Assembly: GCF_037042905.1 (NCBI RefSeq)
Contig: NC_087252.1
Location: 496,001 to 560,000, forward strand
Direction: 5' to 3'
DNA from: Lytechinus pictus
Lineage: Eukaryota
Length of the DNA: 64,000 nucleotides
The translations under genes and the position numbers were made by a program. Below are positions 12,631-55,171 of the stretch, piece after piece; within the stretch, counting starts at the first letter, position 1; the number at the start of each line of letters is the position of its first letter. The notes under the pieces are model-generated. The model saw nothing but the letters and a program-made list of their open reading frames with translations, ran no database searches and was not told the DNA's origin.

Positions 12631-12920
12631 ATGTCAGCGCCCTTGTGCTATTTTCGGTCTTGTTTAAATTTTCGCATGTTCTGTCTTTCTGCTCCCAAAT
12701 CTAACTCCCGTCTGCAAATCCAGCAGCGATTCATGATGACAGACGACAGGGAGAGTCTAGAACATTTACAAAGGACACACACGTCATCTATAGCTTTTCG
12801 TCAAACGCCCGGGAAAGATCCGGGCGTCGTGTTTTTACCGGGATACATGAGCAACATGACCGGCGGAAAAGCCGTGGCACTGGAGGGCTACTGCAGGCGG
12901 CGTGGGCATGCCTTTGTTCG
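12631..12920 (+). CDS. ABHD10: ABHD10-like exon 1
   Basis: aaaATGtca start; ends GHAFV-R at cg|gtacgt. Confidence 0.88.
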
Positions 12921-15900
12921 GTACGTGATATATTTATCTCGTTCCGCTTCAGTGATTTGTTAAGCCACTTAAGGTCCTGACTATGAATCCTGACTCGGGA
13001 GTCGACATAACATACAATGCAAGAAGAATAGGCTCCGAAGAATATGCCGATATCTAGACTATAAATGTATAATTGATTAGAAATTAATACAATTTATACT
13101 AGAGTAGGCTTAACTTTAATTTAATTTTACTATTTGTATTTTTAGAATCTTAAAAGTTAAACGTCAGTTTTTTGTTTTGAATTCTAATGACTGTTACTTG
13201 TCAAAATTAATTGGAAAATTATGACTGAACTTCTTTATTTTTCTTACATGTAAAAAAGTTAGATCTAGATCTAACTTTTTTTTGGTAGTATAGTGAGTGA
13301 TTGTATTACTATTACCGTAAATACCGACCAGCCTTGTATTACCGAACGCGCGCATCGTAGCATCAGAAAATAATTTTATATGCTCAAAACTTTGCAACAT
13401 TCTTCCAAAGGGAACTTGAATAGAAAGATTATGAAAAATGGTCAAAAACACATTTTCAAAATATTAATATTTCTAAAAGTGATAAAATATGGTAAAAATA
13501 GCTCATCACTAGACATCAGTAATTTTGTTGTTTTCTCAACTTATCCCATAGAAAACACACGTTCGGTAATACGATACCTTTATCAAGTGACCATATATTT
13601 CACATGCGAAGAGGGGTCCGATTGGAAGCTAATATCGTAAAAAGGAAAAATGATTTTGGCAAAACTTTTACATATTTATATTTTGAAGGTAATTGTGTAT
13701 TTAAGGTGAAAGTTTGGTGATTTTTATGAGAATAATGTGTTTGATATGATTGAATTCATGAAAAGTGTTCGGTAATACGATCCACTACCATACAGTCAGT
13801 GAGTCATGTACCAATAGCTAATTTATAACCAAACTTTCTTAACAAAATTTTGTTCTAAACTAAAGTTATGTCTAAATGTTCTGGAGATTTTTAGATTTAA
13901 ATGTAGACTAGTTCTACATTTAAATCCCCAAAACTTCTAGACCTAACATAAGTTTAGAACAAAATTTTGTTAAGAAATCGAATGTTTGGTCAAGAAATTA
14001 GCTACAACATGACTCATTGACTGTACTATACTAACAAAAAAAAGTTAGATCTATTCTAGATCTGTCTAAATGTAGTGTCTTTGAAATGAGTCTAGATGTA
14101 GTAGTACATGAGTACAGTGTCAAAATTTTAGTTAATTGGTCAGACATTTAAATAATACTAAGTACTAGCATGACTAGGTCTATAGAAGAATCAAATGTAG
14201 GCCTATTGTATATCTACATGATTATTTATTTACATTGTTGTGATTATTTGATGTCTAATCATCATTATTGTGAACAATTAATAATCATCATAACCATATT
14301 TTGGTCCATCAATTTCTCAGTAGTAATCATCATCATCTTGATTTGTCTTTGCTATCACCATCACCATGGTCATTGTCATCAATTTACCATCATCAGTTAC
14401 TGTAACCGAAATTGATTCCCATCATTGACATAATTGTCATCACCACCATTTGCCATCATCGTCATCTTCATATTCTTTATCAAAATAATAAACTCGTAGT
14501 GGAACTCATGCCATCAATTTATCACCACTATCTTTATCTTTATCATCATCATCATTACTGTACCATCATCAACATCAACACCACCACCATCTTTACAATC
14601 ATCATCACCCTCCTCATCTCCACCACCACCATCATCGTCATCATCATCCTCTCCACCATCCTTGTCATCACCATCATGTATAATTACTTGTAGTCATTGT
14701 CATGACGTCATTGTCATCAATTTATCATCATCATACTTGCCATATTTAAAAGTCTTCTTTTTTACCCACCAGCTTTGACTACCAAGGCTTAGGTGAGTCT
14801 ATTGGGGAGATGAGGAAAGGAGAAAAGATGTTTGACGTATGGAAGTCAGATGCTCTTGCTGTTCTGGATGAACTAACTGTAGGGCCTCAGGTGAGAAATT
14901 AAAAAAAAATGTTAATTCGACCAAATTCTCTATCTTACTCTGTCTGTTTGTCGGTTCCCCCCTTCTTATTTCTCTCACTTCACCTCTAATTTTTCTTCCC
15001 TTCACTTTTTCTTTTTTTTTTCCTCCTTCTCGCCTTCCCCCTCTCTATAATTATAAATCTCTCTCTCTCTGTCTCTTTTCTTCCTTCCTCTTTCTCTCTC
15101 TTCCCCACTCTACCTTACTCTCTTAATTTTTCTCCTTTCTTCTCTGTTGCTATTCATATGTCTTTTTACTTTCAAGGGGAGGGAGGGGGGGGGGGTGTTT
15201 TGCTCTCCCTTTTTACAATTTACAATTTTTTGTCAGGGTGAACTTCCCCTTTAATCGTTTGTATTTCTGTTGTTACTATTTATAAAAGCAAACAAGCTGT
15301 GTCAGATTAAGAAACAAAGTTCTGCTGACCACCCCCCCCAAAAAAAAAAAAAATCTTCTTAAATATGACTATTAGAACCTTTTCAATCCATTATCATTTT
15401 ATTTTAGATTCTTGTTGGTTCCAGTATGGGCGGGGCCATTATGCTGCTTTTAGCATTAGAGAGACCAGAACGTATCCACTCACTGCTTGGGGTAGCTACT
15501 GCAGTACAGTTTGACAGACCAATGTCTGAGCAGAAGAGGGGCCATGTCCATGAGGTAAGTAGTGTAGCCTTAAAAGTAAAATAAAGGGAAAAAAAACAAG
15601 GAGAAGAAGAGAATATTCTCTTCTTCATCTTAAGAATTACACAGGGGTTTAAAAAAAATCATGTTATTTATCCTTTTTAGAGACAAAGTACATTACTAAT
15701 ATAATAAAACAAAAAAAGGTGAATAACTATTCAAATTCTATAAAGAATAATACAGTTTATGTTGGAACGCCATTGTGAGCCAAACCTCAATGGTATTGGT
15801 TATAAAGCAAAATCATACAGCAAGGAAGAGGGTTGATAATGTTTTCTGCATGGTAAATGGCTATATTGAAGTTTTGAAATGTATTGCTGCCTGGGCGGCA

Positions 15901-16629
15901 AAGGGGAGGCATAAGCGTTAGAATCATCGCCTTCTGCCTGGCCAACAACAGGAATGGAAATTGATGTAGGTACATGTATAAATTCTAAGTAAAAGAAACC
16001 ACCCTTATGCCAGTCAGGCGATATCCATCCTAAGAGAAAGGTATGATTGATATTAAACATAATTAATTTTTTTTATGTCTATAATGTGTTTTTTGTATAG
16101 TATATTTCCATAAAGATGAAACTAGCTTTATTAGTTGTTTTCTGCTGCTTTGCTTTCATTCATTGTGAGAATGTATGTTTCATTTTCTAATTACCAATCT
16201 TGTTATTGTGAGTATGTAATGATAATCCTACTACTACTTTGGGATATAATGTGAATACAGAATGAGAAAAAAAATGCTTGATATATATTAAAGGACTAAA
16301 AGAGAAGGGTTTAATCCAATGATTTTCTTTCCTTGCAGGCCCGAGGTTCAATCCCCAGTGACTCATCCTACACCGCTCCGCACAACTTTGTAGATAAACA
16401 CTACACACGATGCCTCAATCAAAACCCTATGCCTGTCAAGCAGCCTATTCGGTTGATACACGGAATGAAAGATGATGTCGTTCCCTTCCAAACGTCGGTT
16501 TCCCTCGCTGAGCGCCTGGAGAGCAAGAACGTGGATGTTATCCTACGCAAAGAGGGCGCTCATCGCATGTCGGAACCTGAAGATATTCGCCTCCTTGTGG
16601 ATTGCCTCGAGGAGCTGTTGAAATTATGA
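12631..16629 (+). CDS. ABHD10: ABHD10-like alpha/beta hydrolase, 281 aa; exons 12631-12920, 14773-14890, 15408-15554, 16339-16629
   Basis: GT-AG introns join in frame (846 nt); motifs PGVVFLPGYMSNMTGGKA, VRFDYQGLGES, ILVGSSMGG (Ser nucleophile), LIHGMKDDVVP (Asp), GAHRMSEPEDI (His); basic N-terminus resembling a mitochondrial presequence. Confidence 0.9.
13793..14023. mobile_element. Foldback MITE with TA TSD in ABHD10 intron 1
   Basis: ta-cagtcagtgagtcatg ... catgactcattgactg-ta; palindromic over nearly its whole length. Confidence 0.75.
14310..14735. repeat. Degenerate (CAT)n microsatellite
   Basis: catcat/caccac runs. Confidence 0.8.
14773..14890 (+). CDS. ABHD10: ABHD10-like exon 2
   Basis: ccag|c ttt gac tac; encodes FDYQGLGES...WKSDALAVLDELTVGPQ; ends |gtgag. 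Confidence 0.9.
15408..15554 (+). CDS. ABHD10: ABHD10-like exon 3
   Basis: tttag| ILVGSSMGGAIMLLLALERPERIHSLLGVATA...HE |gtaagt. Confidence 0.9.
16339..16629 (+). CDS. ABHD10: ABHD10-like exon 4
   Basis: ttgcag| ARGS...PIRLIHGMKDDVVP...GAHRMSEPEDIRLL...TGA. Confidence 0.9.
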   Translation, partial: ARGSIPSDSSYTAPHNFVDKHYTRCLNQNPMPVKQPIRLIHGMKDDVVPFQTSVSLAERLESKNVDVILRKEGAHRMSEPEDIRLLVDCLEELLKL

Positions 16630-27370: not shown

Positions 27371-29041
27371 CAACCTCAATAAAAATAAAATCACATCATC
27401 TAAAAAAAGATTGCAGCAACACCTCAACATCAGGGGCTCCGCCAGATTTTACAGGGAAGTGGGGGGGGGGGGGGGTGGGCTGGTAGCAAGGAGACCTATT
27501 TTCTCAATTGAACATGGGAGTTATGCTCTTATTACTTCGCTCTCACCTTTTTTCCACTTTCCCTTTCATTTTTCACTTAAAAAATCAAAGGGGCCATCGG
27601 TCCCTTGCCCCCTCCTATCCTGAAGTGACGCCCCTGCTCAGCATAATAATCGCCATCATTATAATGGGGCTGTCTTCGATACTGTTATTTCATGTGATCC
27701 TCTACAAAGTTTAGAGTACCGGCTATTTTGGGCATCATTTACACCACCTCACCTCAATCCTATCTGATCTTATCATCCACGAAAAAGGTTTTTATTACTA
27801 TAGCTGCAGCTTTCACGTTAGTCTGGGTCGGAGCCTCTCACTCCATACCAGCTCAAGGGGGAACTCCAGGATAAAAAAAATGTATGATTTGTATTGAAAA
27901 AAAAATACGCAAACAGCAAATAAAAAATTGATTTATAAATAGAGTTTATTCGAAATCGGCCACCCGTGTGTGAATACTGGAGTGACTTTCGGGGGAAAAA
28001 AGAAAGATACGATACGAAATATGTAATTATCAGATAATACACAAAATAACGGATAATGAAATAACCAATAAAACCACTTTTCTAGCTGCGAGTCACTGTT
28101 ATGATAATGGAGTGTTAAGACATGATTTGAATATGAAATAGTTTTAAATCTAGGTACTTGCTCAAAAAGATAATATGTGAATATTTCACTCGCCTTTTAT
28201 TCCCTTTGGTAGTGACGTCAATGATTACTCAATTTGGAGTGAATTAAGAGTGAACATACGAACGTTTAACACAGATCTCACTTCAAAAAGGGTAAAATTC
28301 ACTCAATAACAATTGAAAGTCAGTGGAGTAAAATCTACTCATCCCCGGGGGAGAAAGTTATTAATTCGATTTGTTGAGAGAACATTCTAGTTTCTATTTT
28401 ATTAGCCTGTTTAATTTAATTATAGATATTCTTGCTTGGCGACTGCGAAGACACACAAACAAGGGTAACTCAAAATCATACCCGTATTGGAGGACTTCAG
28501 TATAACAGATCGATAATGATTATGTTTCTAATCCCCAAAATATTAAAAAATTAATGTACGCTTAAAATTGCCGAAATAGGCCTAAAGCCCCTCCCCTAAA
28601 AAGGGGGGAAAACAATTAAAAAGCAAAAATTCAATAAAAACCAAATAAAGTCGTGCTTTGGCATAAAATCTTGTTTTAAATGAGTCTTATGATAATTTTA
28701 TTACAGTAGTATCATCATGATTATAGCCATACAGACAGTTCATTGTAAACCGTTTCATCTATATCCATTCATCTTTACGTCCAATCAGATCCTTCAAAAA
28801 TATAGTTGATTCTTCAACGTGAGTGTGCATGTATTCGCTGGATGTGGTATACTAGATGATATCCCGTATTCCACATGTGGTGATATGTCGGGTTAACCTC
28901 GGGAAATCACAATGTGCATTATAAAAGCTCGATATTGTCATTGAGTTATCGACCCGTTCCGTAAAGGAACCCATTGTCCCATTCGTGAAGCCTTTTGGAA
29001 TTAGAGAATTCAGTAGATAAGTGTTGATTGTAGAGTCCTGA

Positions 29042-29737
29042 TCATACACCGATCCCTCGGATGGCCATCACAGCCGAAGGTCCCCTGAAACATCCCTTAA
29101 GCCGTCCTTGTAAATCACACACGCAAACAAGACTAGCAGAAGCGAAGCACATACGAGATTTACCTGAAGAAAACAAATGATAGTGATGTATTATTAGTGA
29201 TGATGAATGTAAATGATCATCAATAATAACAACAACCACTGTGTTACCACACTACATCTGACATGATATGATTAAGCCCCCTACCTGAATACACCAGTTA
29301 CTGCTATACTACTACAACTATCACCACACCTACTGCTACTACCTATAAGAACAGCAGCAACAACAATAGTAATAATGATAAAAATAATAATTATTATGGT
29401 AATGAAGATTGATGATTATAATGATGATAACAATAATAATGATAATGATAATAATAATGATAATACTAATAATATTTCATTTAGAGGCATATGAAATCGT
29501 GAAGTTAAAAAAAATTGATAAGCAATTTTCTTCTCGAATCAACACTATTGCATTACCTGATAATAAAGGATTTCTCCTTTCTGGTTGATGGCCCCTTGTT
29601 TCGACTTCAAACTGTGTTCTATCAGGCTCGCTCAGTGATAGTGCATTGAGATGATATAAAGGTGAGGCTGACACACGTGGTAATATGATAGTTAATGAGA
29701 CAAAACAGAGGACGAGGATGAATAGAGGATGTGACAT
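29042..29737 (-). CDS. Predicted 100-aa secreted prepropeptide; coding exons 29557-29737 and 29042-29163
   Basis: Acceptor tttctcttttctcctccctgtacag| before acaATG; signal peptide MSHPLFILVLCFVSLTIILPRVSA; phase-1 donor TCAG|GTAATG matches acceptor ttttcttcag|GT; 303 nt in frame; AATAAA at 28697-28702 on the minus strand. Confidence 0.72.
29340..29475. repeat. (AAT/GAT)n microsatellite in the intron
   Basis: Direct inspection. Confidence 0.8.
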
Positions 29738-30787
29738 TGTGACGTCAGAATAGGGACCTGTACAGGGAGGAGAAAAGAGAAACGGGAATCCCAAGTGTAT
29801 ATTATAAGCGCTAGTATGCGATAAGCCAAATCTGATCTGGGTTCCATTTCATGAATGTTGTTATACTAGCAACTCTTGCTGAAGTACAAACTTTCAATGA
29901 AACAGCCAATCAGGAAGCAGAATTTTCACTGCTGCCATGGGAGTTAATTTTCCAGCAAGAGTCACTATTATATCAACTTTTTATGCAATGGGGCCCTGGT
30001 CGCATTTAATTTCACACAAAAAAAATACAGATCTACAATACTCTTTGGCGGATTATCGTCTAATCTCCAATCACTGGCGTAGTGGCTTGGGGGTTATGGA
30101 CCCCCAAATATTCTACGAACAAGAAAAAAAAAAAAAAAGAAAGAAAAGGAACGGAAAATGATGATAATATAATTTCCTAAAAATTATATCAAATTGAAAA
30201 TCTATCACAAAATTAGATGTTAGTACTGAAAAAGTCAAAATTCGGGCTCGCTCGCTTCGCTTTTCCCCATACCTCATGTCTGACCCTCTCAATTTCAGTG
30301 GCATTATGAGTCAAAACTATACAGGGGCAAGATATGACGTATCAAGCAAACTTTATAAGAGTTGTGAGCGAGCAAAAGTTATGACTTTGTTTAGTACAAA
30401 ATCCAATTTTGTGATACATTTTTACATAATATTCAGAAAATATTATCACATTTCACCCTTCTTTCTTCCCTCTTCTTTCCTTTTTTCTCTCTTTTTTGTG
30501 TGGGGGGGGGGGCAAAAGCCCCCAATTTGTACGCCCGGCACTGCTTTAATTACCAAAGAGACGAAAATATACGTTCACCAAGCAGTGATGTGCAGAAAAT
30601 ACTGCCATAAGAACCATACCTCGGTCACATTTGCTCTACGTGTAACGGTGGCCGTACGGCGAGTCGAAAACAACCGTTTTATTCATCTTTATTCAAACCA
30701 CCATTATGTAGCTGGTACAATTTTTTTAAACGGCTGTTTTCGACTCGCCGTATACTACCGCCTCAGAGCATGTGACCGAGGTATTAA

Positions 30788-31391
30788 AGGTCAAGTCCAC
30801 CCCACAAAATTGTTGATTTGAATTGATAGAGAAAAATCAAACAAAAATAACGCTGCAAATTTCATCGAAATCGGATGTAAAATAAGAAAGTTATGACATT
30901 TTTAAGTTTCGCTTATTTTTCACAAAACAGTTCAATGCACAACTCAGCGATATGCAAATGAGAGAGTCGATGATGTCCATCACTCACTATTTCTTTTGTT
31001 TTTTATTGTTTGAATAATACAATATTTCAATTTTTACAGATTTGACAATAAGGATCAACTTAATTTAACCATAAAATGTTAAATTAATGGTAATTCCACA
31101 TGTTCAGGGAGAAATAAAACTTTGTGTCACTTGATGAGGAGGAGAAAATTAGAATATTTCATATTTCATATAATAAAATACAAAAGAAATAGTGAGTGGG
31201 TGACGTCATCAGTCTGCCAATTTGCATACCGACCAGGATGTGCATATAACTGTTTTGTGAAATTAAGCGAAACTTTAAAATGTCATAACTTTCTTATTTT
31301 ACATCCAATTTTGATGAAATTTTCAGTGTTTTGCTTGTTTGATTTTTCTCCTTTTTTTCAAATCAACATTTTGTTGGGGTGGACTTGTCCT
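30788..31391. mobile_element. Kolobok-like MITE with TTAA TSD
   Basis: ttaa-aggtcaagtccacccca ... tggggtggacttgtcct-ttaa; long imperfect TIRs. Confidence 0.85.
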
Positions 31392-32565
31392 TTAATGCTG
31401 ATATCATAAGTGAGCCAAAATTTGATTAAAATTATTTATTTTTTATTCTTCTTTTATCAAAGGGAAGGTCCCTGCTCGGGGCAAAAACACAGATCAGCGG
31501 ATTACATTTACATCGTGAAATGCGCGCTAACAGCCGGTGCAGACTCGGCTTCGCGTTTACACGGAGAAAAAATTGCAGTGGCTGCACCGTGAGCCGGTGC
31601 AAGTCAATCGCGTTTACACGCATAAAAAAGGCGAGGCTGCACTGGCTCTCGAGTCTGCACCGCCAGCAGATGCAGTGTGTAAACACGGTATATAATAGCT
31701 GTGATCGGCCTGGAGCCGGTTTCTTTGGTGAGACTGTATCATAAACCATTAATCATTGACTCTCGGTCATTCACCGTGCGACCCGATTGAATAGCGCTAA
31801 CCACATTCTCTCCGCGAATAGAGCGGGAAAGAATATACATCTCTATATGTATGTTGTCACCATTTATTTGATTGTTATCACTCAATTGATTAAGGCCAAT
31901 CGTCTTTTGATGAGTAGAGTCCTCTCACAATCAACTTCTCCCTTTAGAAAATAATAAACAGCTGTGAAATTAACCTCAATAACCATAAGCCCGATTGAAT
32001 TTAGATTCTCATTTGATTTTAATTTAAGGCAAACTATAAAAGTCAATATAAATCGCAGTTTTATTCTGGGGGACTTGTTTGTCTGCGGAAGTTGTTATTC
32101 CCTCTGCTCGGCACATTCTTGCAAAAGCCAAATAGTATTTTCACTGAATTCACATGCATTTTTATCAATTTTTTAGTTTCTCTTTCCCATTTATTTATTT
32201 TTAGCATTATTTTTGTAAACAATATTCGTTATTTACATTGACTTTCTATCTAAAATCTTGTTAATTCTTATCAGTAATTTTGCTTGAATACCTGATTTAC
32301 GACTACACGTACATACGAAATGAAGTGATGAATGATGTGAAAAAAATAATAAAGGTGATGTTTAGAGTATAGAAGAATGGTAAATATTGCTCTTTTGCAA
32401 GTTGTAGATAAGTTTATTACTATAAAAACGAGTAAATAATAACACAAACTTGGATCGATCCCTCCTGTTCAATCTATATTTGAAGGTAAATGTTGAGCAA
32501 TATTCAACCTTGAAGTGAAAAGATTTTGTAAATATCTCGACCTGTAGACTCACGTTTACCAATTA

Positions 32566-32762
32566 CACTCTAAAAAACGAAGAGATACGAAGAGCTAATT
32601 TAGGTCTTAAAGAGCGTGTATAGTGACTGCACTTCGGAGTGCTGATTTTTCTCGTTCAAATTTGAACTAGACAATTTAATGAGCGCTCCGAAGTGCAGTC
32701 ACTATACACGTTCTTTAAGAGCTAAATTAGCTCTTCGTAGCTCTTCGTTTTTTTTTAGAGTG
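32566..32762. mobile_element. CACT-terminated (EnSpm/CMC-like) foldback MITE
   Basis: ta-cactctaaaaaacgaagag ... ctcttcgtttttttagagtg-ta; arms about 80 bp. Confidence 0.8.
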
Positions 32763-33437
32763 TACCATCTGAATCAAGGCCTAACCTTTAATCTCTTATT
32801 GCAGTTTTTCAGGCCTTTTCCATCTTTCTGTGATTATCATAATAGCCTCCTTTACTCTAAATCGTAAACTCACCGTCATCAATTTTCGTCTTCATCCTCC
32901 CCTTCTCTTGATTACTTCTACCAAAGGGTTACCCTTAAACATCCCCGTATTTGTTTCCTTCATGGATACAAAGACAGTGTGATGAATCGAGTACTTAAAA
33001 CCTTTTCATCGTATACTCCTTCCCCCTCTCGCTATAATGACGTAATGAGGGTCATCTTTTATCTGCCCCTCAAGTCTCTAGCCCTAGTCGCCCCCGGGGT
33101 CGCCCCCCTCTCTCTCTCTGCATCCCGCTTCCTTTACCCCCCTCTCTATCTTTCTAGCACACAGTCTTTCTTTCTTTCTTCATAATACGCAGTTCCTCCT
33201 GGAAATTAGGTTGGTATGTCCTTCCCCTTCGTATTACTGTTTAGAGCAAACGTATTTTTATTTCCCCCCTTTTGCAGGTCATTTTTTCTGACCAAAATCC
33301 TCTTCATTTTGGAGTGGAACCCCTTTTTTTATTGAGGGGGGGGGGTGTTAACAAAGTAGCAGTCCTCTTGAATAGTCGTTCCCATGCCCATGCTCTCCTT
33401 ACATTTATTATACAAATCCAACCATTTCTTAATCCAG

Positions 33438-33596
33438 GGGGCCGTTTCATAAAGCTATTCGTAAGTTAAGAGCGACTGGTGAACCTTTCTTACGCGCTTA
33501 ACCATCGCCAATGAATATTACAATTACCAAAAGAAAGGACCACCAGTCGTTCTTAAAGCAGCTCTTAACTTACGAGCAGCTTTATGAAACACCCAC
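33438..33596. mobile_element. PIF/Harbinger-like MITE
   Basis: gccgtttcataaagct ... agctttatgaaacaccc with CAG flanks. Confidence 0.75.
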
Positions 33597-34584
33597 CAGG
33601 TCTTCTTTAATCAGCATCATCTTTTAGGTTGAGGCAGAAGATTTATTCATTTTCCATCTAAATGCATCGAGGTTTGATATAGAGGTAAACTTTCGCATCC
33701 GGGGTTTATTCCTACTAATTATTACTCAAGGGAGATCCATCTTTTAAGCAAGACTGATCTTCTATAAAGCCTGCATCCATCAACATCTCAACTCAGTTTG
33801 CAGTGGGGGTGGCAGGGCGGGGAATGGGAGGCACATAATACCCCGAGCGGGTGCCAGTGAAAATGCGATTAACATTTACTTTTAACAATCTGAATACTTT
33901 AGTTACATTTTCAAGACTGTAATCAATAGTGTTTTGATTTCAAAATTAGAATCGAAAGTAACTACAACTACGACTACTACATTTACCTACTGCTGAATAC
34001 AATACTATATAGGTTAAAGGTTATATATCATGCATTATTTGAAGAAGAAACGTATAGACAAATAAAGAAGACAACTCATGCACACGCCATGCCCATCAAC
34101 TTAAACTACGAAAGGGGATATAGGTTAACATTTACCTACTGCTGAATACAATACTATAGGTTAAATGATACCAGTTGTATAAAGTTTTAAACAACTGTTT
34201 TAAAACTTTAACCAATTAAAAAAGAAGTTAAAACAACTTGTTGTTAGAGTGACAGACTTAAACCTTTTTAATTTCAATGTTTATTAATTACGATTTTGAC
34301 ATTTACAGTCATCTTAAACTTTTTATTTATTCATTGAAGATGCAGTTTTGTACCTATGTATTTTCTCATCGTATATAAGATCCCGTGATTTGATATCACT
34401 CTAGAAAACAAACTGTAAAAAATATACAAAATTATACGTCCTATTTCTACCTCCTCAATTTTACTTCCTATCTTCCCAACTTTCAACTCAACTTTCCTCC
34501 CCTCCTTTGCTCCCCCTCTTTCTCTCTCTTTCATATCTTATTTTCTCTGCACCCCCCTCAAATCAAACAGTTCTTGCTCTAATG

Positions 34585-34856
34585 CCCCTTTCGCAGTTTA
34601 AGTTGATGGGCATGGCGTGTGCATGAATTATCTTCTTTATTTGTCTATACGTTTCTTCTTTAAATAATGCATGATATATTATGTACTATTTATCTAGGCG
34701 AGTTTGTTTATAGGGATCGTATAACTTTTTTGATTTGTTAACAATTACTTAATTATGTGACTTATTATCATGTTTATACTATTATTTTAAAAAGATTCTG
34801 AAATACAGCCTTTGGCTGCTACTGATTTTTCTTTAGATAAAACATTACCATTACCA
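34585..34856 (+). mobile_element. Probable LINE 3' end fragment
   Basis: Ends gaaatacagcctttggctgc...cattaccattacca, a hairpin plus short tandem tail. Confidence 0.5.
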
Positions 34857-36205
34857 AAATGAAAGCTTCTGCTTGGTGATAGAAACTTGTAATTTTCTTC
34901 ACAGAGAGTAAAATTCATTGTTCCGTAAACAAATAAATGAATAGATTAATAACAATAAATGAATACGATAGATAATTGACTGAATAATGAAATAAAAAAA
35001 ATAACATTAATAATAATTAATAAATAGATGAATAAATAAAATATATCAATAAACAAAAATGAATAATATAAATGTTGAAGAAATAGAGCTAAATCACTGG
35101 GGAAATATAAATATATCAGTAAGAGGCGCAACTGAGATGAGGTTTTGATAATCAAAATGATGAATGAAAGAAAAAATGAACACATTGATTAATAAATTCA
35201 ATACATTTAGATATAAACGAATGGTTAATAGATGCATGAAAAGTTATGGAAGAATAAATCATGAAATAATAATTAAATGAAATGAGAATAATCATCATAC
35301 TTTATTCTCAAAATAGGGACTTGATCGCTAAAAAAAAAAATCCTCTAAGTTGTACACAGCAAAAATGCTGGCTAAAATTTCTTTCCAACCCGGCGCTGCT
35401 TACTATATGAACCTTAAAATAGTACCTTTTCGGTTTAAACAAGTGTTTTAAAATATTAGGATCTAGTTTTAATATTTAAAGGGGGAGCTAACTTTGTGTG
35501 GTCTCTCATCGACTGTGTGTTATGAATACATAGTCTTAAAATATACGTTTTCAGATATCTACCAACTGACCAATACTACAGAGAATAAATTGACCTATAA
35601 TTGTATATGTATAGAGAAACTAAAATGTTCTTAGAGGATAAGTAATTGTTTGCTCCTTGGTGACATAATTATTGCGGTATAAAGGTATTGAGTAGTTAAT
35701 TAGCATGTTATCATTCAAGTGGGTCTATATAACTAGACTACACCAGCATTATGGGCAGGAAACTGGTCAGGTATGACAAGTTGAGGACTCGAGATGGCGC
35801 TACTGGTTCGTATCTGTATAGTTCTTACTAAATCAAGCGTGGTTGTTTAAATTGTTAAACAACGTTATAGTAAACAGCGTTGTATGATATTTCAACCAGC
35901 TTTACTGTGTAAGTGCCCTCCTGAAAGCTGGCTACGCCACTAATAATTATGCACCATTACCCAAAGATGAGAAAGGTTAATGAAAGAAACGACTAAACGT
36001 CTTAAAAATAGGACACCTAAATGACAAATCATTATAATCAGGAGATAAGAAAGACCTTTCCATCTTTCTTATATACTATATAGAGCAGAAGTACTTTCAT
36101 CGTGCGAGTCAATAATTATGCACATTCACTAGAAGTAAATGGATTAAAAAAACCGAACGATGATGTGCGCGCCAGTTGTAATAACGCATTAGCTTTGATC
36201 GGTCT

Positions 36206-36351
36206 GGGGTCCGTTGCAGAAAGAGTTGCGTTTAAACGCAAGTCAAAAATCAATCGCAAGTCCCAAATGCGCGCTGTTGATTGGTTGAAAATCAAGTTAC
36301 GCATGATTTTTAGAGATGCGATTGATTGCAACTCTTTCTGCAACGGGCCCC
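36206..36351. mobile_element. Palindromic MITE (second copy at 38990-39602)
   Basis: ggtccgttgcagaaagagttgcg ... gcaactctttctgcaacgggcc. Confidence 0.8.
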
Positions 36352-38374
36352 TGGAGTCGGATACGTTGGTGTAACCATGGTAACTATGCGTATAAATACA
36401 GCATATTGCTTTTTGGCGCGTTTATGGTGGACATCCTCTTCAGCGATACAGACACACCGACGAAACTGACTCCAAATCAACCAATGATGTGCCTTCAAAA
36501 TAATGTAATAGATTTAATAGGTCAGGGACGGGTTTGTTGGTAAGACTGTATCATTACTGCCCGTTATGAAAAGTTCGAAAATTATGCCCGTGAATTCGTG
36601 TTGGGGTGATCATTACATACTAAAACCATAGAGCTATGCTAAAACAGAAATAAAATGTAATTTGATTCTCTACAAATTCCTGAATGCGTTGAGTTTCTTC
36701 TTTCATTTTATCTTAATTTCAAGCTTACCTTTTTTAAAGAGACAAACGTATAAAAAGCGCATAGAGAGTAACTATATAACGCGCGATATAATTTATCTTC
36801 GTCGTTTAAATATCGCAATTACTAGTAAGGAAAGAATAGAAACACATTTTTATTTTAACCAATCATAACTATGCATTGCAGTTCCATGCATGACCACCAA
36901 TTGTGATAGTAGACCTATACATGTATAAGGGGGGGGGGGGTAAAAAGAGAATTGAAATCGGGAGAAAAGGCGATGAAATGTGTAAACGGCAAAACAGTTA
37001 TAATTAAAACAGTTTGCTTGATTGCGCAATTCTACAATTACCCTTAATTTTTACGTATATAAATGGTTCAATCACAGCTAGCTTTGGGCCATTTTGCCCT
37101 TCCCCATCATATGAAATCGTTTCTTTTATTCAAGCTATATCATTTAAAGTGTATTGAAAAGGGATTATTTGATTGTGTAATTATACAATTAGCCTTATTT
37201 TTTATTTATTTATTTTTCTATATAACAATTCAAGCTTAGATTTAGATCATCGTGCTCTACACACCTATAAAAACGGTCTCTGCTTTTCCCTAGACACCCC
37301 CTCTCCCCTAGCCTGCCTTCCCCTCTCTTTCCCTTCCTTTTGTCGTGTTTGGGATCGGTAATATATAAAGGGAAGCTTAAATGAACATAGATGATGAACT
37401 CTGAAGAAAGTTATTTGCAGTTCAAAATCACGGGGAATTTAATAATCAATAATCAGCTACAGTTTACAATAAAAAAATGTTGTGGTCCCCCCTTAAATGT
37501 TTGGCTTCCGCCGCCAATGGAAGTACATGAAGATATCAATGAAGATTCAGATAAAAACAGGAGACGATGAATATAATAATTTCGAAGTCTAAGATTAAGA
37601 TTCTGAAGTTAAAATAATATTGGATGAGCGTCTAAATCTTGAAGTCAGTCAGTCTATATGGATGAGTGTCAGTGGGTCTAGTATTATCTCTTTTCTCTAA
37701 TATTCAAGAAGTCTTATTTATATCATTGGTTTTGGGGTGTAACAATATAAGGTGGGAGGGATCTAAACTTGATCTGATTGGACTACATGTAACTGTCTCA
37801 AACTTTCTCTGTTATAAGGGGGTGTTATGTGATGATGCTCTGTGCAAGTGACTGGGGCTGGAAGTGTGAGTCATACATCTTTTGTTCCTTGAAGTTGGGT
37901 TGGTCTTTTTGAATTGAATTGAATTGAATTGAATTTATTCAAACCAGTCAAAGGAGATCAAAATACAAACAAAATAAATGGTTACATTATAAAGAACTAA
38001 AACAAATGACAGGTTTGGGACCCCAAAGAAGCACAGCTTGTAATCAGGGGCCCCTGCATAAGATATTTTACTCAAACATGGAATAACTATGAGAATAAGA
38101 AGAAAAAAAAAATACAAGGTATTTAAAGATCACAACAGGAACATTACCATTTATGGTCAGGGTTTAGGAATTAAATGGTATTGGGGGTTTTGGGATTCTT
38201 AGATGACATTGGGGAAGTTTGCAAACAAGTGAAGGTGAATGACTGAAAGGATAACAGAAAGTTAAAAACATACTACATGATACTTTCTTTCTCCCCCTTC
38301 CCTTTTTCTTTCCCTTTAGTTTATTTTCATACTCCTTTTTCTCGGTCTTCTCGCATTTAATCAGGTCATACCAG

Positions 38375-38541
38375 GGGGCCGTTTCATAGAGATGTTCGTA
38401 AGTTAAGAGCGACTTTATGAACGACTGGTGAACCCTTCTTACGTGCTACGTGCTAAACCATCGCCAATTCAATATACCATTTACCACAAGAAAGGATCAC
38501 CAGTCGCTCTTAACTTACGAACAGCTTTATGAAACACCCAC
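38375..38541. mobile_element. PIF/Harbinger-like MITE
   Basis: Same family as 33438-33596. Confidence 0.75.
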
Positions 38542-39015
38542 CAGGCATTTTAATTCTTATATGTTATCTCTCCATTTGCATGATATGCCAATCACAAATA
38601 AGAAAAAACATACAATATGTTTGAAAGATTGATAGTTATATCTTTTCATTTATCTTATCCCCTAATCCACTTTGATACGCGCTGATAAAAAGCGCGGAGC
38701 CTCTACAAAATATTAACTTAATAAATATCAAACCAAATCTGAAGACAAATCGGAAACAAGATTGCTGATGTTGCTTGTATAAAGGTGTGGGTTTCTTAAA
38801 TCTCATAGTATCTCTCATTAGCATTCCAAGTGTGAAGTTGAAATCCTTCCTAATTCCATAAAACGTATAGATTTACAATATATATAGACATAAAGAAGTA
38901 ACATTTAACGACAGCAGCATGACGGTGGTAGAATATCTAGATTCCAGAATCAATTGAAACAATTGATTGTCAAGGGGGTTATATCCACCTCTGCCGCAGA
39001 AAGAGTTGCGTTTAA

Positions 39016-39483
39016 AACCCCCGTCACACTAGAGGCGGAATGAGCCGGAATGCCGTCGGAATGAAAATTCTTGGTACATTCCTGGATATTCGAAGCGCAT
39101 TCTAAAAATTCTGACTGCATTCTGAGTGCATTCCAGACATTCGGGTCCATTCTTGTGACCGGCCCGAATGTTTTGCTCATGTTCAAAACTTTCGAAGTGC
39201 ATTCGAAGTGCATTCTGACTGCTCTCTGACTGCATTCTACATATTCTTACGACATTCTTGTGTTCCGACTGTATTCGAGCTGCATTCGACAGTCAATACA
39301 CCCGGAATGTGCAAGAATCATTCAAGGCGGGATCGAAGGACGTTCTAAGTATTTGATCGACATTTTTGCAAAAGTAGTGAAAATTTCAAATTCCCTCCCG
39401 AATGTGGCACGAATTTTGAAAGTTCTTCATTCCGGCTGGTTCTGCTCGATTCCTGCTGATTCCGAATAAGTGTGACGGGGGTT
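39016..39483. mobile_element. PIF/Harbinger-like MITE nested in the MITE at 38990-39602
   Basis: TIR aacccccgtcacact / agtgtgacgggggtt with TAA TSD; the empty site is visible in the copy at 36231-36240. Confidence 0.85.
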
Positions 39484-39915
39484 TAAATGCAAGTCAAGAA
39501 ATCGATCGCAAGTCCCAAATGCGCGCTATTGATTGGTTGAAAATCAAGTTGCGCATGATTTTTAGGGTTGCGATTGATTGCAACTCTTTCTGCAACGGGC
39601 CCAAGAAAAGGGTTATTTCTTTGTCGCATTTTGATACAGATCTTTTAAGTGCAGTTTGATGATATTAATTCTCAGAAAGCAGATTTTTAATATGATTAAC
39701 ATGGTCTAAACAATTCGGAATTTTTACAATTGTTTCTTGAGCGATTATTTTGACAGCGCCAACTCCGCAAGACAAAATCAATGTCTGAAAGATTCCTCAT
39801 CGGATATACTCTCTTCAAACAGTATGCAAATCTTAATCATGTTTATGGTGCTATCATGATATTCAACACTGCAAGTTTGACTCTTTGATCAGCTAAGTGT
39901 AGGCTTGCAAACTAT

Positions 39916-40403
39916 AGGGGAAGCTCACCCTGACGAAAAGTTTGTTGTAAAATTGCAAAAAATAATGATAAATATCGCCGAAGGTTTGAGAAAATCCATC
40001 AAAGAATAAAAAAACATTAGAATTATAATTATTCGATTTGTGACGTCATAATGCGAGCAGCTTTCCTACGTATCGAATGGTAAAAATCAATTAAATGTAA
40101 TTTTCTCAAAAAAAATTAAAATGACTTTTAATGTACGTTTAGTATGATCAATAGACAAATTATTTCACACCCATTCCTAGAGAGAAAACAAAATTAAGTC
40201 ATCACGAACCATTAAAAAATTGAAATTTATGCACTTTACATAACATATGGGGCAGCTGCTTGTTTATGACGTCACTAATCCAAAATGTAACATTCTTATA
40301 ACTTCCTTAATCTTTAATTGATTTTTCTAAAACCTTCATCAATATTTGTTTTAATTTTTTTCTGCTATCTTTACAACAAACTTTTCTTCAAGGTGAACTT
40401 CTT
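39916..40403. mobile_element. Kolobok-like MITE
   Basis: aggggaagctcaccctgacgaaaagtttgttgtaaa ... tttacaacaaacttttcttcaaggtgaacttc; terminal fragments also near 1795 and 15231. Confidence 0.75.
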
Positions 40404-40968
40404 AATCCACCATGAAATTTTAACTCCAAAGTGTGCAGTGTTAATATAAAAACATGGTGTTGTAAAATAACAACAAAGGGTATTGAACTAACACCATTAA
40501 TTCAACTTCGGTGTAAAATACACTCTTTTTGGCTAAACACCAACATGCCAGTGGTGTATAGTTTAAACACTGCCGCTATCTTTGAAGTTTCCAGGGGTAC
40601 CTTAATGAAGGTGCACAGAAATCTAATTGATTTGATCATAACATTTCTACCCCCTTCCCCGAAAACAATACAAAGGGAATCAAATATATGAAATATATAA
40701 ATTAAGAAATTAAACAAAAAACACGAAAATAAATATGTAAACCTAATCACTGTTTTTCTGAACAATGGAAGCTTTCCATGATCATTGATTATTTTCGTTT
40801 AATGAATAAGAAAAATATATTTCTTTCCAATTGTTTTAAGAGAAAATTTAATATAAAACTTAGGCGTCTGACGCATGTTTGCAAGGTCTGCATGTCAGCT
40901 GCAAATGGTTAGTCGAGTAATTCAGAAAACAATGACTTTTTTCTTTCAAAACACTAAGTTTAACTTAC

Positions 40969-41280
40969 CTGAATCAGTAGATAAAGAAGAAGGATCCACG
41001 AATATTATATGAGTGATGAAACTTGAAGAAAACAGATCGAGAAACTACGATGGATGAAGAACGAAGTACGAGCTATATACTTCTTGAACAAACTTTGATG
41101 TAAACAAAGTCAGAAAAGACGATGGATGAAGAACGAAAACTACAAAGTTATGAATATTTCTTCCTGAAATACTTGACGAAATTATTGATGGAGAACGAAA
41201 ACTCTGAGGTAATACTTCCTTAGTAACTAAAAGATCTCCTCTCTGGAGTAGCTTTTCGTTCGAAAGTGAAAATGGATGGT
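40969..41280 (-). other. Probable non-coding first exon (5'UTR) of the prepropeptide gene
   Basis: About 310 nt with no ATG on the minus strand, ending at a consensus donor CAG|GTAAGT; GATAAAA TATA-like motif about 30 nt upstream (~41306-41312). Confidence 0.5.
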
Positions 41281-41604
41281 TGCTAGGATGAGAGGATAGA
41301 GGCCGGTTTTATCGCATCCATTCCGCATCACTGGTCTCACCGTTGAATTAAAGATTGATGAGTGTATACTGTGTTTTTAAAGTCGTGTATGCGCATGCGC
41401 CAAGAGGGTTGACGGGAACTTTTTCCCAGGCAGGGGCGGATCTAGCTTTAACCAAGAAGGGGTTTGACCGAGAAATTTGAAAGGGGGGGGGGGGGTAACT
41501 GTATTTGAGGTTCCCTCTAACCCCCCCCCCCCCGAAGATCCGCCACTGCCGGGGGGGCACCCGTTCCATTCCCCTTTTCTCCTTCTAATTCTCCCTCAAC
41601 TTCT

Positions 41605-41712: not shown

Positions 41713-43111
41713 TCGTTTTTTCATCCTTCACAATCATTGAAGTATATGTAATACATTTTTTTCAATTGGATAAATACATTATCCGCTTGAAATTTTGAGA
41801 CGTTACTGAAGTGCAAGATATGGTCACACCCCACCCCCACGTGGAAAGACATTCAAAGTCAAGACGGTTTCTTTAAAAGGTCTTTTGGGGTTAAACATGT
41901 CTACTAATTTCGCACTTTAATATCTTTTTAATGCTAATTTTCGAGGAGGTAAAATGTTGACGGCCTTTTTTTTTTTTTTGGGGGGGGGGGCCGTCGACAA
42001 TGTTTGCTTCTCTCATTAATTTTTTGCGTAGGTATCGACCCATTCTACCTCACCTGTGACCGGTTTTTCAACGAGAACCAAACCTTTCACAAAATCAATT
42101 TGTTTATTGTTTGTTATTTTAGTTATCTTTTTTATCAAATTACTGTTTACATGGTGCTTTGATTGATACAGAAGAAAACTGTAATTTCCCCTTTTCCATT
42201 TTTGTCAAAAAATAATGCAAGCACGTATCCATTCGCCTTTGGAGGTCATGAACTGTAAATACAACACTACCGAAGCCTTGTTGGAGGGTAATTAGGTGAT
42301 TTGACGTCGTGATGGAAAGGATAAACGACTTCTCCTATATTCACCCCCTCCCCGGTAAATCTTTATTGTCTTTTCCCCACGTTTTGCCAATTTTATAGGG
42401 ACAAGGGGCCTAGTTCCCCTTTGTCGCCTTTATAATCAAGTAAGCAATCTTACGATATACGAACAGTAAGGCCAAGAAATGAATAACGAGTCATTGTCAG
42501 CGGTTTAAACAGAGCCCCCTGTCATTGCCTGTATAACGTAATTACTGCGGGAAAGATTTTATCATCATTCCAGGACCCGTCGGAAATTGATTTCTTCATA
42601 ATCGTCATTAAACTGCATGGATTCTGAAGAAATATGACAGAAAATCCCGCTGGGTTGTGAATAGCTGATATAGTAATTATTTTACCACAAAACAAGGTTA
42701 GTGTGTCGTTGGTAAAGTAGATCATTAAACTAGAGCGATTAAGTAAGTCACATAGTTATTAACAATATCGCTCTATTTTTCTAATTCATTCTGGAAATTA
42801 AAATCATTTTTTTATAAATCTTCTCGAACATATAAAATGTTGAATATCAGAGGCATAAAGATAAGTATATTTTGACATCCTTAATTAGTTCAAAGTCTGA
42901 TTACTTTATATTTTGTTCTTATTCTTTCATTCATTTAAACATCTCAACTTTGCTATTTTACGTTTGAATATACATATATATATGTCTGGCTTAATACATA
43001 TATATATTGGCGAAGAAGCTCAAAAACCATTGAAGCTAGAGACGTAGCCAGGATTTCTTCAACTTTTATTAGTACAAGCTTTCGGCCATTTAGTTCCTTG
43101 CTCATCACAAT

Positions 43112-43138
<27 letters not shown>

Positions 43139-43143
<5 letters not shown>

Positions 43144-44370
43144 TAGTAAGGTGTGGAGTGCCCCAAGGCTCAATATTAGGCCCATTATTATTTCTTTTAT
43201 TTGTAAATGACATGTGCAATATTTCTGAACAATTTGAGCCAATATTATTTGCGGATGATACTAGTGTGTTTATGTCCCACCATGATATCATTACTCTACA
43301 AAATAACTTTAATACTGAATTCGACAAACTGGTTGTCTGGCTTAATAATAATAAACTTGTGCTTAACCAAAAAAAAAAAAAATTCATGACTTTTACAAAA
43401 AAACATATTGATGCAACCCAAATAAAATTAACTATTGACAATAAATTAACATGGAATGAACACACTAGTGTCATCTGCAATAAAGTATTCAAACGTATTG
43501 GTTTATTTTACAAACTGAAATCTTTTCCTAAAGAAACTCTAATGATCTTATACAACACGTTGATATTGCCACATATGTATTACTGTATTCTTACATGGGC
43601 ATGCTCTAGTATGCAAAATACAAATAGACCTTTAGTGCTACAAAAGAAAATTATAAGACTTGTTTATCACAGCCAATACCTTGCCCATACCAACCCTATA
43701 TTCTTCAATCTAAAGACTTTGAAAATGCCTGATATATATGTATACCAATGTGCAATATTTATGTATTTATGTATCCATAAATTATTACCATCTATTATTT
43801 CATACTTCCAACTGAACAGAAATATTCATGAATATGAAACTAGGCATTCAAATAATTTTCACTTTCCTTTAACAAAAACTTTAACCTATCAAAATACAAT
43901 TTTTTATGAAGGTCCCTTTAATTTGTAATGAATTACTGATTACAATAAGACAGAGTCCAACGCTGGATACTTTTAAAAGAAAAATGAAATTTTTACCATT
44001 ACATAAGTACCTCTTAAATGTAACAGTTTGATATTTTAAATAAGAAATGTATGCGTGTGTGTTTGCGGGTGTTTGATTACGAATGGTGTATGTGTGTTGA
44101 TGTATGGGTGTATGATTTAAATGTACTATTTTCAATTAATTTTACTTTGCTACTTATAATCAACAATTCAAAATATAAATCTTCTGATCTGTATGGAGAT
44201 TGTCTTTTAATATAAGGCTCTGCCTTTCTGCCTCTCCTAATACTTTCATTTGTACATTTGTATTACTTGTTTTGATATATTTTCTTTATCTATACTCCTT
44301 TATATGTGTGTATATATTTACATTGTTATATGTTTTTTAATGAAAGTATTGAATAAATGAAAAAAAAAAA
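43139..44370 (+). mobile_element. 5'-truncated CR1/L2-type LINE (RT C-terminal half, degenerate)
   Basis: GVPQGSILGPLLFLLFVND, LFADDT, TIDNKLTWNEH, LQKKIIR motifs; AATAAA plus poly(A) near 44352-44370; (TA)n on both sides. Confidence 0.92.
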
Positions 44371-53419: not shown

Positions 53420-54917
53420 TTTGATTTGATTTGATTTGATTTGAATTTATTTTTCCACTTTCGTTTACAATAACAAATCATATATGACAATAATACATAT
53501 CAATCAAGAAATAGTTACACAAAATCGAAAAATTAACAATAATTTGTCAAAAAAGATAACAAAAGTGGGGGAACCTAAATTAAAAGCAAAGCTTGTATTG
53601 CTTAGGACCCAGTGAAATAACATTTTTTATTTATACAACATTAACAAAAAAAATAAAAACAAATTTGTTGGTTGGAAAATACTTGATTTTGTAAGAAAAG
53701 GAAAAAAAAATAATAATGATAACGGTGACAATATTTATAATAGCAATTATTATGCTATAGTAACTATAATCCTGCGAAGACGGACATGTAAAATAGAATA
53801 TGGGACAGACAAAATTACAAAACACAAACATATAACAAGAACAAAAAATTATAGCACAAAACTTAAACGAAAATTAAATATTTCATACCCTGAAGAATTA
53901 CTGTCGAAATAAAATTGTCATAGCATCAGATAAAACATTTTAAAATTTAAATATTTAAATAAGGTAACACTGCGCGTATGGAATAAATAATAAAAGAAAG
54001 CAAGAGTGATAATGCAAAATCATTCAGATGATCAGGACAGATAATGTATGGGTGCGCGCGTAGCAGGAACAATAACTTAATCTTTGTATTTTAAGAGTAA
54101 CGATAATTTCAATCTTTTTTTAAATACATATAAAGAAGGATAATTTTTTAAGTAATCAGAAAAAGAATTCCAGAGGTTTGGACCTTCATATATAGGCCTA
54201 AACGTATTTTTAGCGAAGAGAGTTCTAAGCAAAGGCAAATGAAACTCTTCTGATCGTCTCGTTGGGTAATAATGAATTGCGCGATTTCTTAAAAACATAT
54301 TATCGAAAGAATTTGGCAACAAATCGTTAGTATACTTAAACATAAATTGACCTAATTGAAGCAGATATAAATCTTTTACTTTCAGAATACTACTATCATA
54401 GAAAAATGGATCAGTATGAGCACGAAAATCTACTTGATTAATAATTCTAACCGCTCTTTTTTGCAACAATAAAAGTTTGTCTAAGATAGTTTGGTGAGCG
54501 TTGCCCCAAGCAAGTAAGCCGTAATTCAAATACGGTAATGTTAGAGAAAAATATAATGTTAGTAAGGCAGAAGGTAGAAGTTGGATCTTTAGTCTATTTA
54601 GTATACCTATGTTGCGTGAAATCTTTTTAGAAATATTATCGATATGAATCTTCCATGAAAGCTTATTGTCAATTATTACACCAAGAAACTTAGAATATAA
54701 TACCTTTTCTAAGGGAGTGTCATCAAAAACTATATCAGCTGGTAAGGCATCAATTGAATTACTAAAAAGGATATATTTGGTCTTTTCTAAATTTAGAGAT
54801 AATCTATTTGCTCGAATCCACTGAGTAATGTTTTTTAGTTCAGTATTCACAATTTCAACAAGGGTGTTTGGATTTGAATGAGAGAAAAACAAGTTTGTAT
54901 CGTCAGCAAATAATATA
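53420..54917 (-). mobile_element. 5'-truncated CR1/L2-type LINE (RT C-terminus ORF at 54077-54916)
   Basis: ILFADDTNL, RANRLSLNLEKTK, KFLGVIIDNKLSWKIHI, LQKRAVRII; 3' AATAAA followed by a (TCAAA)n tail. Confidence 0.93.
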
Positions 54918-55171
54918 AGTATTAAATCATATAAGTATTAAATTTTCGTACAACCTTAAAAGAATTGGGTTTAAAGCAATCTTTTTTGTCACGTCATTTA
55001 CATACCGCAGTCAATTCAATCCACGCAACCATCATATAAGTATTAAATTTTCGTACAACCTTAAAAGAATTGGGTTTAAAGCAATCTTTTTTGTCACGTC
55101 ATTGATATTGTGGAAATTTTTTTTCGTTTTGTCATTTCAGGTGTGCTTTGAGGTTTTTCCTCCTTAATGGA

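Follow-up and report, generated by a model that had tools for sequence, protein, structure and literature searches.

A spliced three-exon sea-urchin gene for a four-cysteine precursor, likely of a new signalling peptide and possibly of a defence peptide

The window that we analysed, a stretch of 64,000 nucleotides, carries on its minus strand a three-exon sea-urchin gene that is spliced and encodes a product of 100 residues. Exon 1 (40969..41296; 328 nt) is a non-coding 5'UTR exon that lacks an ATG, contains a 13-nt motif three times, and is followed directly after position 40969 by the donor GTAAGT. Intron 1 (29758..40968; 11,211 nt; GT..AG) contains several inverted-repeat (MITE-like) elements, and its pyrimidine-rich acceptor ends at 29758, 20 nt 5' of the start codon, exactly where an earlier interpretation of this DNA (the sequence-only reading) had placed it. 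Exon 2 (29557..29757; 201 nt) contributes 20 nt of 5'UTR, the first 60 codons and base 1 of codon 61; intron 2 (29164..29556; 393 nt; GT..AG) is a phase-1 intron; and the coding part of exon 3 (29042..29163) specifies the four-cysteine core and the hydrophobic tail of the predicted mature peptide, followed by the stop codon TGA (29044-29042). The two coding pieces, 29737-29557 (181 nt, beginning with the ATG at 29737) and 29163-29042 (122 nt), encode 100 amino acids with one stop; splice sites, frame and product all agree with the earlier claim that two minus-strand ORF pieces are united through canonical phase-1 sites. The complete 5'UTR (348 nt) is free of ATG triplets, and the ORF starts at the first ATG, a weak point given that 12% of dinucleotide shuffles are equally ATG-free.

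This gene structure is directly reflected in contigs from sequencing runs, of which four out of 19 entered the comparison; the run listings carry no tissue, and none of the runs listed as containing the sequence is recorded as RNA. Contig 8 of run X13, 1696 nt long, aligns without a mismatch and at contiguous record positions to 41296-40967, 29755-29553 and 29159-28300, the offsets of 2-4 nt at its joints being letters common to both sides of each joint. Its positions 1-330 correspond to exon 1, intron 1 is skipped within it, and both junctions that the sequence-only reading had predicted (40969>29757 and 29557>29163) are joined, so that the ATG-free exon postulated some 11 kb upstream is indeed connected to exon 2. 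The 393-nt intron is skipped in three of the four runs (X13, X1 and X5), including one that carries a second organism label, and contig 7 of X1 covers 41037-41296 of exon 1. Two details of the earlier proposal had to be revised: the X13 and X1 contigs start at 41296 and not at 41312, and the AATAAA at 28702 does not mark the end of the transcripts observed, since contigs of X13, X1 and X5 extend past it. The 3'UTR (27997..29041; about 1 kb) is aligned as far as 28300, and its last 303 nt are deduced from the length of the X13 contig, which runs on contiguously beyond 28702 and at least 303 nt further than 28300; AATAAA is present at 28702, 28403 and 28201 within this 3'UTR and at 27950 just past its end. 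Contig depth, a poor measure of expression, is uneven: it is 7-16 in organism A but reaches 514 in a run of organism B. Zero depth over the exons was found in the approximately 6/100 of the raw RNA reads of run X17 that were examined.

Under the second organism label (organism B), the gene is present with its frame intact. Five letters differ there over the 204 of the exon-3 piece, compared with 13 over the 208 of the exon-2 piece (p = 0.09, counted per letter and not by codon); no gap falls within the ORF, while both UTRs contain gaps, although these are few events.

The encoded protein has the layout of a secreted prepropeptide. Residues 1-24 (29666..29737, minus strand) constitute a predicted signal peptide that ends in V-S-A, agrees with the -3/-1 pattern and has a hydropathy peak of 3.22 over 11 residues; a signal-like filter was passed by two of the 91 ATG ORFs in the window, this ORF being one of the two. 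A polar, mildly acidic pro-region follows (residues 25-53; 29579..29665, minus strand), with five D/E versus two R, a pI of 5.05 and a charge of -3.4, and then an Arg-Arg pair (residues 54-55; 29573..29578, minus strand) that is predicted to serve as a convertase site. As P4 is not Arg, the pair is not a site of the furin type. Cleavage here would release a 45-residue C-terminal peptide whose first five residues are still encoded in exon 2 (29572-29558) and whose cysteines at positions 11, 19, 21 and 30 form the framework C-x7-C-x-C-x8-C. The predicted mature peptide has a pI of 9.7, a charge of +4.7 and 42% hydrophobic residues, contains 13% K/R and no Trp, and ends at the stop codon with no amidation signal. 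At the sequence level, both the architecture put forward earlier (signal, acidic spacer, dibasic site, C-terminal cysteine peptide) and the cationic 45-mer with this cysteine spacing were found as described. When the transcript was shuffled by dinucleotides 2000 times, an ORF of at least 100 aa arose in 135 shuffles, seven of these had a signal-like start, and none had the full architecture, by criteria fixed post hoc after the sequence had been seen. In the AlphaFold prediction, a hydrophobic tail extends loosely from a confident three-stranded core (pLDDT 80-90); the mean pLDDT is 77.9, versus 51.0 for one Cys-rich non-coding control.

No homologue was found in the collections searched. In a word-index search against longer proteins, the exon-3 peptide gave five candidates, none at E up to 10, and exon 2 gave none; the first codons of the exon-3 query (P0001) were read from the intron end, which makes its residue 1 foreign and leaves residues 2-3 as in the spliced product. 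A full phmmer search of 1.84 billion representatives yielded three matches, which we rejected as long tandem-repeat proteins with scores summed over the repeats. The PDB sequence search was blank, Pfam gave one sub-threshold row for the peptide and none for exon 2, EGF, orexin and hormone families all being absent at E up to 1, and none of the 600 and 596 pattern matches in metagenome contigs was confirmed. The ESM Atlas returned no match for the mature peptide; for exon 2 it offered bacterial hypotheticals (0.82 at best) and then pigment-dispersing-hormone precursors (0.78), all below 0.9 and hence discounted. With a 42-residue model, which has little power, Foldseek gave no match with E up to 0.001, and the best Z of the VIA fold search (2.8 among 48,161 chains) lies at background level. 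Within the 64-kb window there is no paralogue and no Rfam family. The neighbouring ABHD10 is present in the protein collection (the match is named from Lytechinus pictus), and the precursor is absent from the same collection; because the collection lacks this species' own precursor, the blank reflects missed annotation and not range. A search of main texts for a 7-residue string of the peptide returned no paper; an earlier description elsewhere is possible.

Judged from its sequence, the cysteine spacing fits no echinoderm family that we checked; as the sequence-only reading had held, the peptide differs in its cysteine features from strongylocins, centrocins and the orexin- and MCH-types, and has no database match. 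Eclosion-hormone-type precursors (Spnp11/Spnp15, Arnp15a/b) are alike in length (about 100-110 aa), in layout and in their Cys-rich C-terminal peptide of about 50 residues, the starfish Arnp15a/b comprising a signal, an acidic spacer, one dibasic site and a C-terminal Cys peptide of 47-53 residues (PMC4772807); however, six cysteines are conserved there versus four here, the spacing is another, and there is no sequence match. Strongylocin precursors (22 + 16 + mature, 89 aa) likewise combine a signal and a short pro-region with a cationic Cys-rich C-terminal peptide (PMC4805251), but this has six Cys, three disulfides and 5.6-5.8 kDa and is more cationic, compared with four Cys, 4.67 kDa and 13% K/R here, and EeStrongylocin 2 carries a brominated Trp, a residue absent here; positive residues make up 23-29% of the urchin antimicrobial peptides described there (PMC4805251). 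Centrocins have a heavy and a light chain, one interchain disulfide and a second pro-sequence, none of which is found here. The crinoid orphan candidates PCNP6 (C-x-C-x4-C-x3-C) and PCNP7 (C-x3-C-x8-C-x3-C) also have four Cys (PMC9793003), but in an amidated peptide near the signal, whereas ours is C-terminal and not amidated. Ambulacrarian orexin-type peptides resemble the predicted peptide in a disulfide-rich N-terminal part and a linear C-terminal tail, but they have six Cys and end in an amidation Gly with a dibasic site behind it, none of which occurs here; the echinoderm MCH-type has two Cys enclosing conserved D, W and R, as against four Cys and no Trp. None of the three forms of the gamma-core (GXC-X3-9-C or two levomeric forms; PMC6062912) occurs in the predicted peptide. 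Insulin/relaxin peptides pair an A-chain of CC-x3-C-x8-C with a Cys-bearing B-chain, whereas here no two cysteines are adjacent and residues 25-55 contain none. Vertebrate LEAP2, a cationic antimicrobial that is also a receptor ligand, and endothelin, whose hydrophobic tail extends freely from a disulfide core, are two-disulfide products of prepropeptides; their Cys spacings differ from ours, neither gave a Pfam or PDB sequence match, and they serve as working analogies only.

We regard the product as probably a new signalling peptide, with a defence peptide as a possibility. More specifically, we propose tentatively, and at a little under an even chance, a prohormone that is cut at Arg-Arg to give a disulfide-cored cell-to-cell signal. 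The predicted signal peptide would direct the precursor into the secretory pathway, where a regulated-pathway convertase of the PC1/3 or PC2 type would cut after Arg-Arg and release the non-amidated 45-mer (monoisotopic mass about 4,663 Da if two disulfides are formed). The two disulfides would lock the predicted three-stranded beta-sheet core, which may dock on the surface of a receptor, most likely a GPCR, while the free tail engages it, by analogy with endothelin. We favour a prohormone because both introns are spliced and the frame is intact, because the layout is that of Arnp15a/b (PMC4772807), and because the mature exon diverges less in organism B, the direction expected of a receptor ligand (p = 0.09); the low K/R content and missing Trp, the lack of a gamma-core and of a paralogue in the window, the confident AlphaFold model relative to its control and, weakly, the ORF at the first ATG point the same way. 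Running against it are the lack of a homologue in known neuropeptide families, the missing amidation signal, the antimicrobial-like charge and hydrophobicity, a contig depth that would suit an inducible or gland product equally, and the lack of an RE1-like site near the promoter (window matches at chance level). Were the gene truly lineage-restricted, defence or secretion roles would be favoured.

A host-defence function is possible, if on the unlikely side: the cationic beta-sheet peptide, locked by disulfides, masked in the precursor by the acidic pro-region and released from coelomocytes or epithelia, would attack microbial membranes, and urchins would have a third antimicrobial family in addition to the strongylocins and centrocins. 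The strongylocin-like layout, a pro-region whose charge roughly balances that of the peptide, the predicted beta-sheet, the missing homologue and the uneven depth among runs agree with this, but the peptide is poorer in K/R than urchin antimicrobials and lacks Trp and a gamma-core, there is no tandem paralogue in the window, the mature exon is no more variable than the pro exon, and no kappaB-like site lies within 1.8 kb of exon 1 (seven matches in the window versus 6.0 expected). Many venom peptides are made as small disulfide-rich prepropeptides; this format, an apparently restricted expression and the missing homologue would also suit a product that pedicellariae, spines or tube feet secrete against other organisms as a venom, antifouling agent or deterrent, a role that we consider improbable. 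Globiferous pedicellariae bear venom glands in many urchins, but the urchin venom components noted from that source (PMC4280546), namely contractin A, the haem protein peditoxin and a lectin, are not peptides of this kind; moreover, the gene is single-copy in the window, divergence of the mature exon is low, and no toxin fold matches above background, a comparison of little power with the 42-residue model.

It is quite improbable that the precursor is a highly diverged member of a known family, for instance an EGF-like module that has been truncated, or an eclosion-hormone- or orexin-type peptide in reduced form. Its last three cysteines (C-x-C-x8-C) are spaced as in the EGF C-terminal loop, the Cys core sits on a phase-1 exon, and the reach of a single 42-residue query, with no alignment behind it, is limited; yet two of the six EGF cysteines and the Gly-aromatic-x-Gly loop are missing, the corresponding Pfam families are absent at E up to 1, such folds are absent from the Foldseek and VIA results, and the echinoderm orexin- and eclosion-hormone-type peptides have six Cys. 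We consider it very improbable that the transcript is a spliced non-coding RNA, or the gene a young one with an ORF that serves no selected function. The lack of a protein record beside that of ABHD10, the frequency of 100-aa ORFs among the shuffles and a translation that is putative would be compatible with it, but the full architecture never arose by shuffling (post hoc criteria), gaps in organism B (few events) spare the ORF and not the UTRs, the predicted fold is confident relative to one control, and no Rfam family lies in the window.

Returning to the signalling peptide, it is conceivable, though we would sooner doubt than assert it, that the precursor is the founder of a peptide-hormone family of echinoids, so far undescribed, that has escaped both genome annotation and the neuropeptide catalogues, is set apart by the framework C-x7-C-x-C-x8-C and has a three-stranded fold locked by disulfides; its peptide would then be a candidate for binding one of the orphan receptors of the sea urchin. 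No new kind of system is involved, as prepropeptides are textbook and orphan echinoderm candidates are regularly reported (PMC9793003; PMC4772807); the Strongylocentrotus purpuratus peptide catalogue lists 38 genes (PMC6209648). The gene belongs to a laboratory sea-urchin model, is absent from the protein collections searched, and illustrates how an ORF of 100 codons that is interrupted by introns can be overlooked in annotation; its 45-mer is defined, synthesisable and of predicted mass. Should it prove to be a signal, the catalogue of deuterostome peptides would gain a ligand family, and receptor de-orphaning a new candidate; as a defence peptide, it would be the third antimicrobial scaffold of urchins.

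The splice sites and frame of the minus-strand gene proposed in the sequence-only reading, two coding pieces joined in phase 1 into a 100-residue product, were recomputed and agree with it. As read from the sequence, the ATG lies at 29737 (-), 20 nt past a pyrimidine-rich acceptor, while a donor follows 29557 and the next acceptor precedes 29163 (-); coding pieces of 181 and 122 nt, separated by a 393-nt phase-1 GT..AG intron, give the frame, which stops at a TGA (29044-29042, -). Both predicted junctions (40969>29757 and 29557>29163) are present in contig 8 of sequencing run X13. This 1696-nt contig aligns to 41296-40967, 29755-29553 and 29159-28300, pieces that are contiguous in the contig with no other letter, so that a single contig lacks both introns; for intron 1 the joint is taken from these piece positions and is not among the joint rows listed. 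The 393-nt intron is also skipped in X1, which stems from a different study, and in X5, which carries the second organism label (organism B). The spliced gene is confirmed, and the case for it gains strength from spliced contigs under two organism labels.

Part of the window sequence is contained in 16 of the 19 runs listed (five studies, two organism labels), whose records do not label them RNA; transcript alignment covered four of the 19. Since depth over unique intron bins is slight or nil and the assemblies comprise 99-158 million letters, we infer that those with exon contigs look like transcriptomes and not like DNA carrying a processed copy. In X17, the sole raw RNA run aligned, the 8.7 million reads used make up about 6% of the run; exon depth was zero, and the gene went undetected in this sample. 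Intron 1 holds MITE-like inverted-repeat elements (30783-31396, 32572-32753, 33434-33601, 34023-34679, 36203-36351, 38368-38548 and 39920-40401), most of which are deeply covered, in each of the four runs aligned, by sequence from other loci. Retention of intron 2 would give an 86-aa product (29477-29737, -) that keeps the signal and the RR site and loses the four-cysteine core; no sign of such a product was found.

The proposed 5'UTR exon, about 11 kb upstream, has no ATG, ends in a GTAAGT donor after 40969 (-) and is joined to the coding exons in the X13 contig; its proposed start at 41312 did not hold, as the X13 and X1 contigs begin at 41296. Within this exon, a 13-nt motif occurs three times (41053-41065, 41125-41137 and 41187-41199, -; spacing 62-72 nt) and nowhere else in the window, against 0.24 expected for a pattern derived from these same sites; it may have arisen by a small tandem duplication or may serve in translation. 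The predicted AATAAA is present at 28702, but the transcripts seen continue past it in X13, X1 and X5. X13 contig 8 runs 303 nt past 28300 and, if colinear, would end near 27997, close to an AATAAA at 27950.

The gene is real and its kind is known: it encodes a predicted secreted-type prepropeptide. Residues 1-24 end in V-S-A and are hydrophobic, with a hydropathy peak of 3.22 across 11 residues; next come a polar, mildly acidic stretch (residues 25-53) and a dibasic RR (residues 54-55). The C-terminal 45 residues carry cysteines at 11, 19, 21 and 30 (pI 9.7; charge +4.7). A signal-plus-polar-tail filter was passed by only two of the 91 ATG ORFs of at least 55 aa in the window, the precursor and a retrotransposon antisense frame. 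Shuffling the transcript 2000 times by dinucleotide gave 135 sequences with an ORF of at least 100 aa, seven of these with a signal-like start; none added a dibasic site followed by an even number of cysteines, four or more (criteria chosen once the sequence was known). As evidence for coding the ATG-free 5'UTR is weak, because 12% of the shuffles were ATG-free too.

Neither half of the precursor (exon 2; exon-3 peptide) found itself or a relative in the protein collection, and the three hits obtained were rejected as tandem-repeat artefacts. Pfam, PDB sequences, the ESM Atlas and metagenome contigs yielded nothing usable. The convergent four-exon gene ABHD10 (12631-16629, +) is 97.5-100% identical, per exon, to a protein listed by NCBI under Lytechinus pictus, and the S. 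purpuratus protein shows 87% identity over the last exon; urchin proteomes are therefore in the collection. As even the precursor of L. pictus itself is absent from it, the blank result suggests that annotation missed the gene and is hardly informative about its distribution. A 7-residue string of the peptide occurred in none of the main texts searched, which were those of papers available without subscription.

AlphaFold2 modelled the exon-3 peptide alone with a mean pLDDT of 77.9 (68-78 across five models), reaching 80-90 over residues 1-30 with a low-confidence tail; all four cysteines sit on predicted strands (5-10, 14-19, 24-29). A single, only indicative control, a Cys-rich non-coding 42-mer of the window, gave 51.0. 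Foldseek returned no match at E up to 0.001, and the best Z of VIA among 48,161 chains was 2.8, by which a fold is neither assigned nor excluded. The last three cysteines share with the EGF loop only their spacing, C-x-C-x8-C. Judged by sequence, the framework C-x7-C-x-C-x8-C is matched by nothing tested. As had been claimed, strongylocins (six cysteines) and centrocins (heterodimers; both in PMC4805251), orexin-type peptides of echinoderms (six) and MCH-type peptides (two; PMC9793003) differ from it. So do the insulin A-chain with its adjacent cysteine pair and crinoid PCNP6 and PCNP7, with four cysteines in other spacings (PMC9793003). Further literature consulted comprised PMC6209648, PMC11868395, 10.1101/129783, PMC6586643, PMC4280546 and PMC11574069.

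Our best explanation, held at somewhat less than even confidence, is a predicted prohormone. The precursor layout is like that of echinoderm eclosion-hormone-type precursors, whose peptides have six cysteines instead of four (PMC4772807); the 64-kb window holds a single copy of the gene and no paralogue; and the mature exon diverges less than exon 2 in organism B (5/204 versus 13/208 letters, counted per letter and not per codon; the 204 letters take in 86 nt of UTR, and p = 0.09 by Fisher's test). Against it, no family matched, and a cationic, hydrophobic, predicted beta-sheet suits an antimicrobial peptide, for which urchin strongylocin offers the identical signal-pro-mature order (PMC4805251). 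An antimicrobial role is nevertheless rather unlikely: cationicity is low and the gamma-core forms defined in PMC6062912 are absent, points that also favour the prohormone. Scanning the promoter for motifs did not tip the balance either way; roughly 120 nt upstream of where the contigs begin, an imperfect palindrome (41414-41427, -) is similar to a Rel-type site without matching the 10-nt consensus. An appendage or venom secretion appears improbable, and a diverged member of a known family slightly more so. Least probable is a non-coding RNA; no Rfam family was found in the window, and a 419-nt organism B contig crosses the ORF ungapped; the gaps seen in organism B, which probably reflect just two or three events, fall in exon 1 and the 3'UTR.

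As a prohormone, the chain would enter the ER through its signal peptide, and two disulfides would lock the three-stranded core. Cleavage after RR would fall to a regulated-pathway convertase; the site lacks the Arg that furin sites carry at P4. The product would be a free, non-amidated 45-mer of about 4,663 Da (oxidised). By analogy with endothelin, a rigid core with a free hydrophobic tail may suggest a receptor ligand of that type.

Elsewhere in the window, a Ty3/Gypsy-type LTR retrotransposon (3369-8844, -; domain names read by eye) looks intact; it has two open reading frames that overlap in different frames, one gag-like with a CCHC knuckle (382 aa) and one pol-like (1473 aa). Two truncated LINE-type reverse-transcriptase-like fragments (42939-43928, +; 54077-54937, -) were likewise read by eye. 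ABHD10 provides a usable synteny marker for the peptide gene, and the precursor, whose kind is itself no surprise, offers echinoderm peptide biologists a good candidate that can be tested directly.
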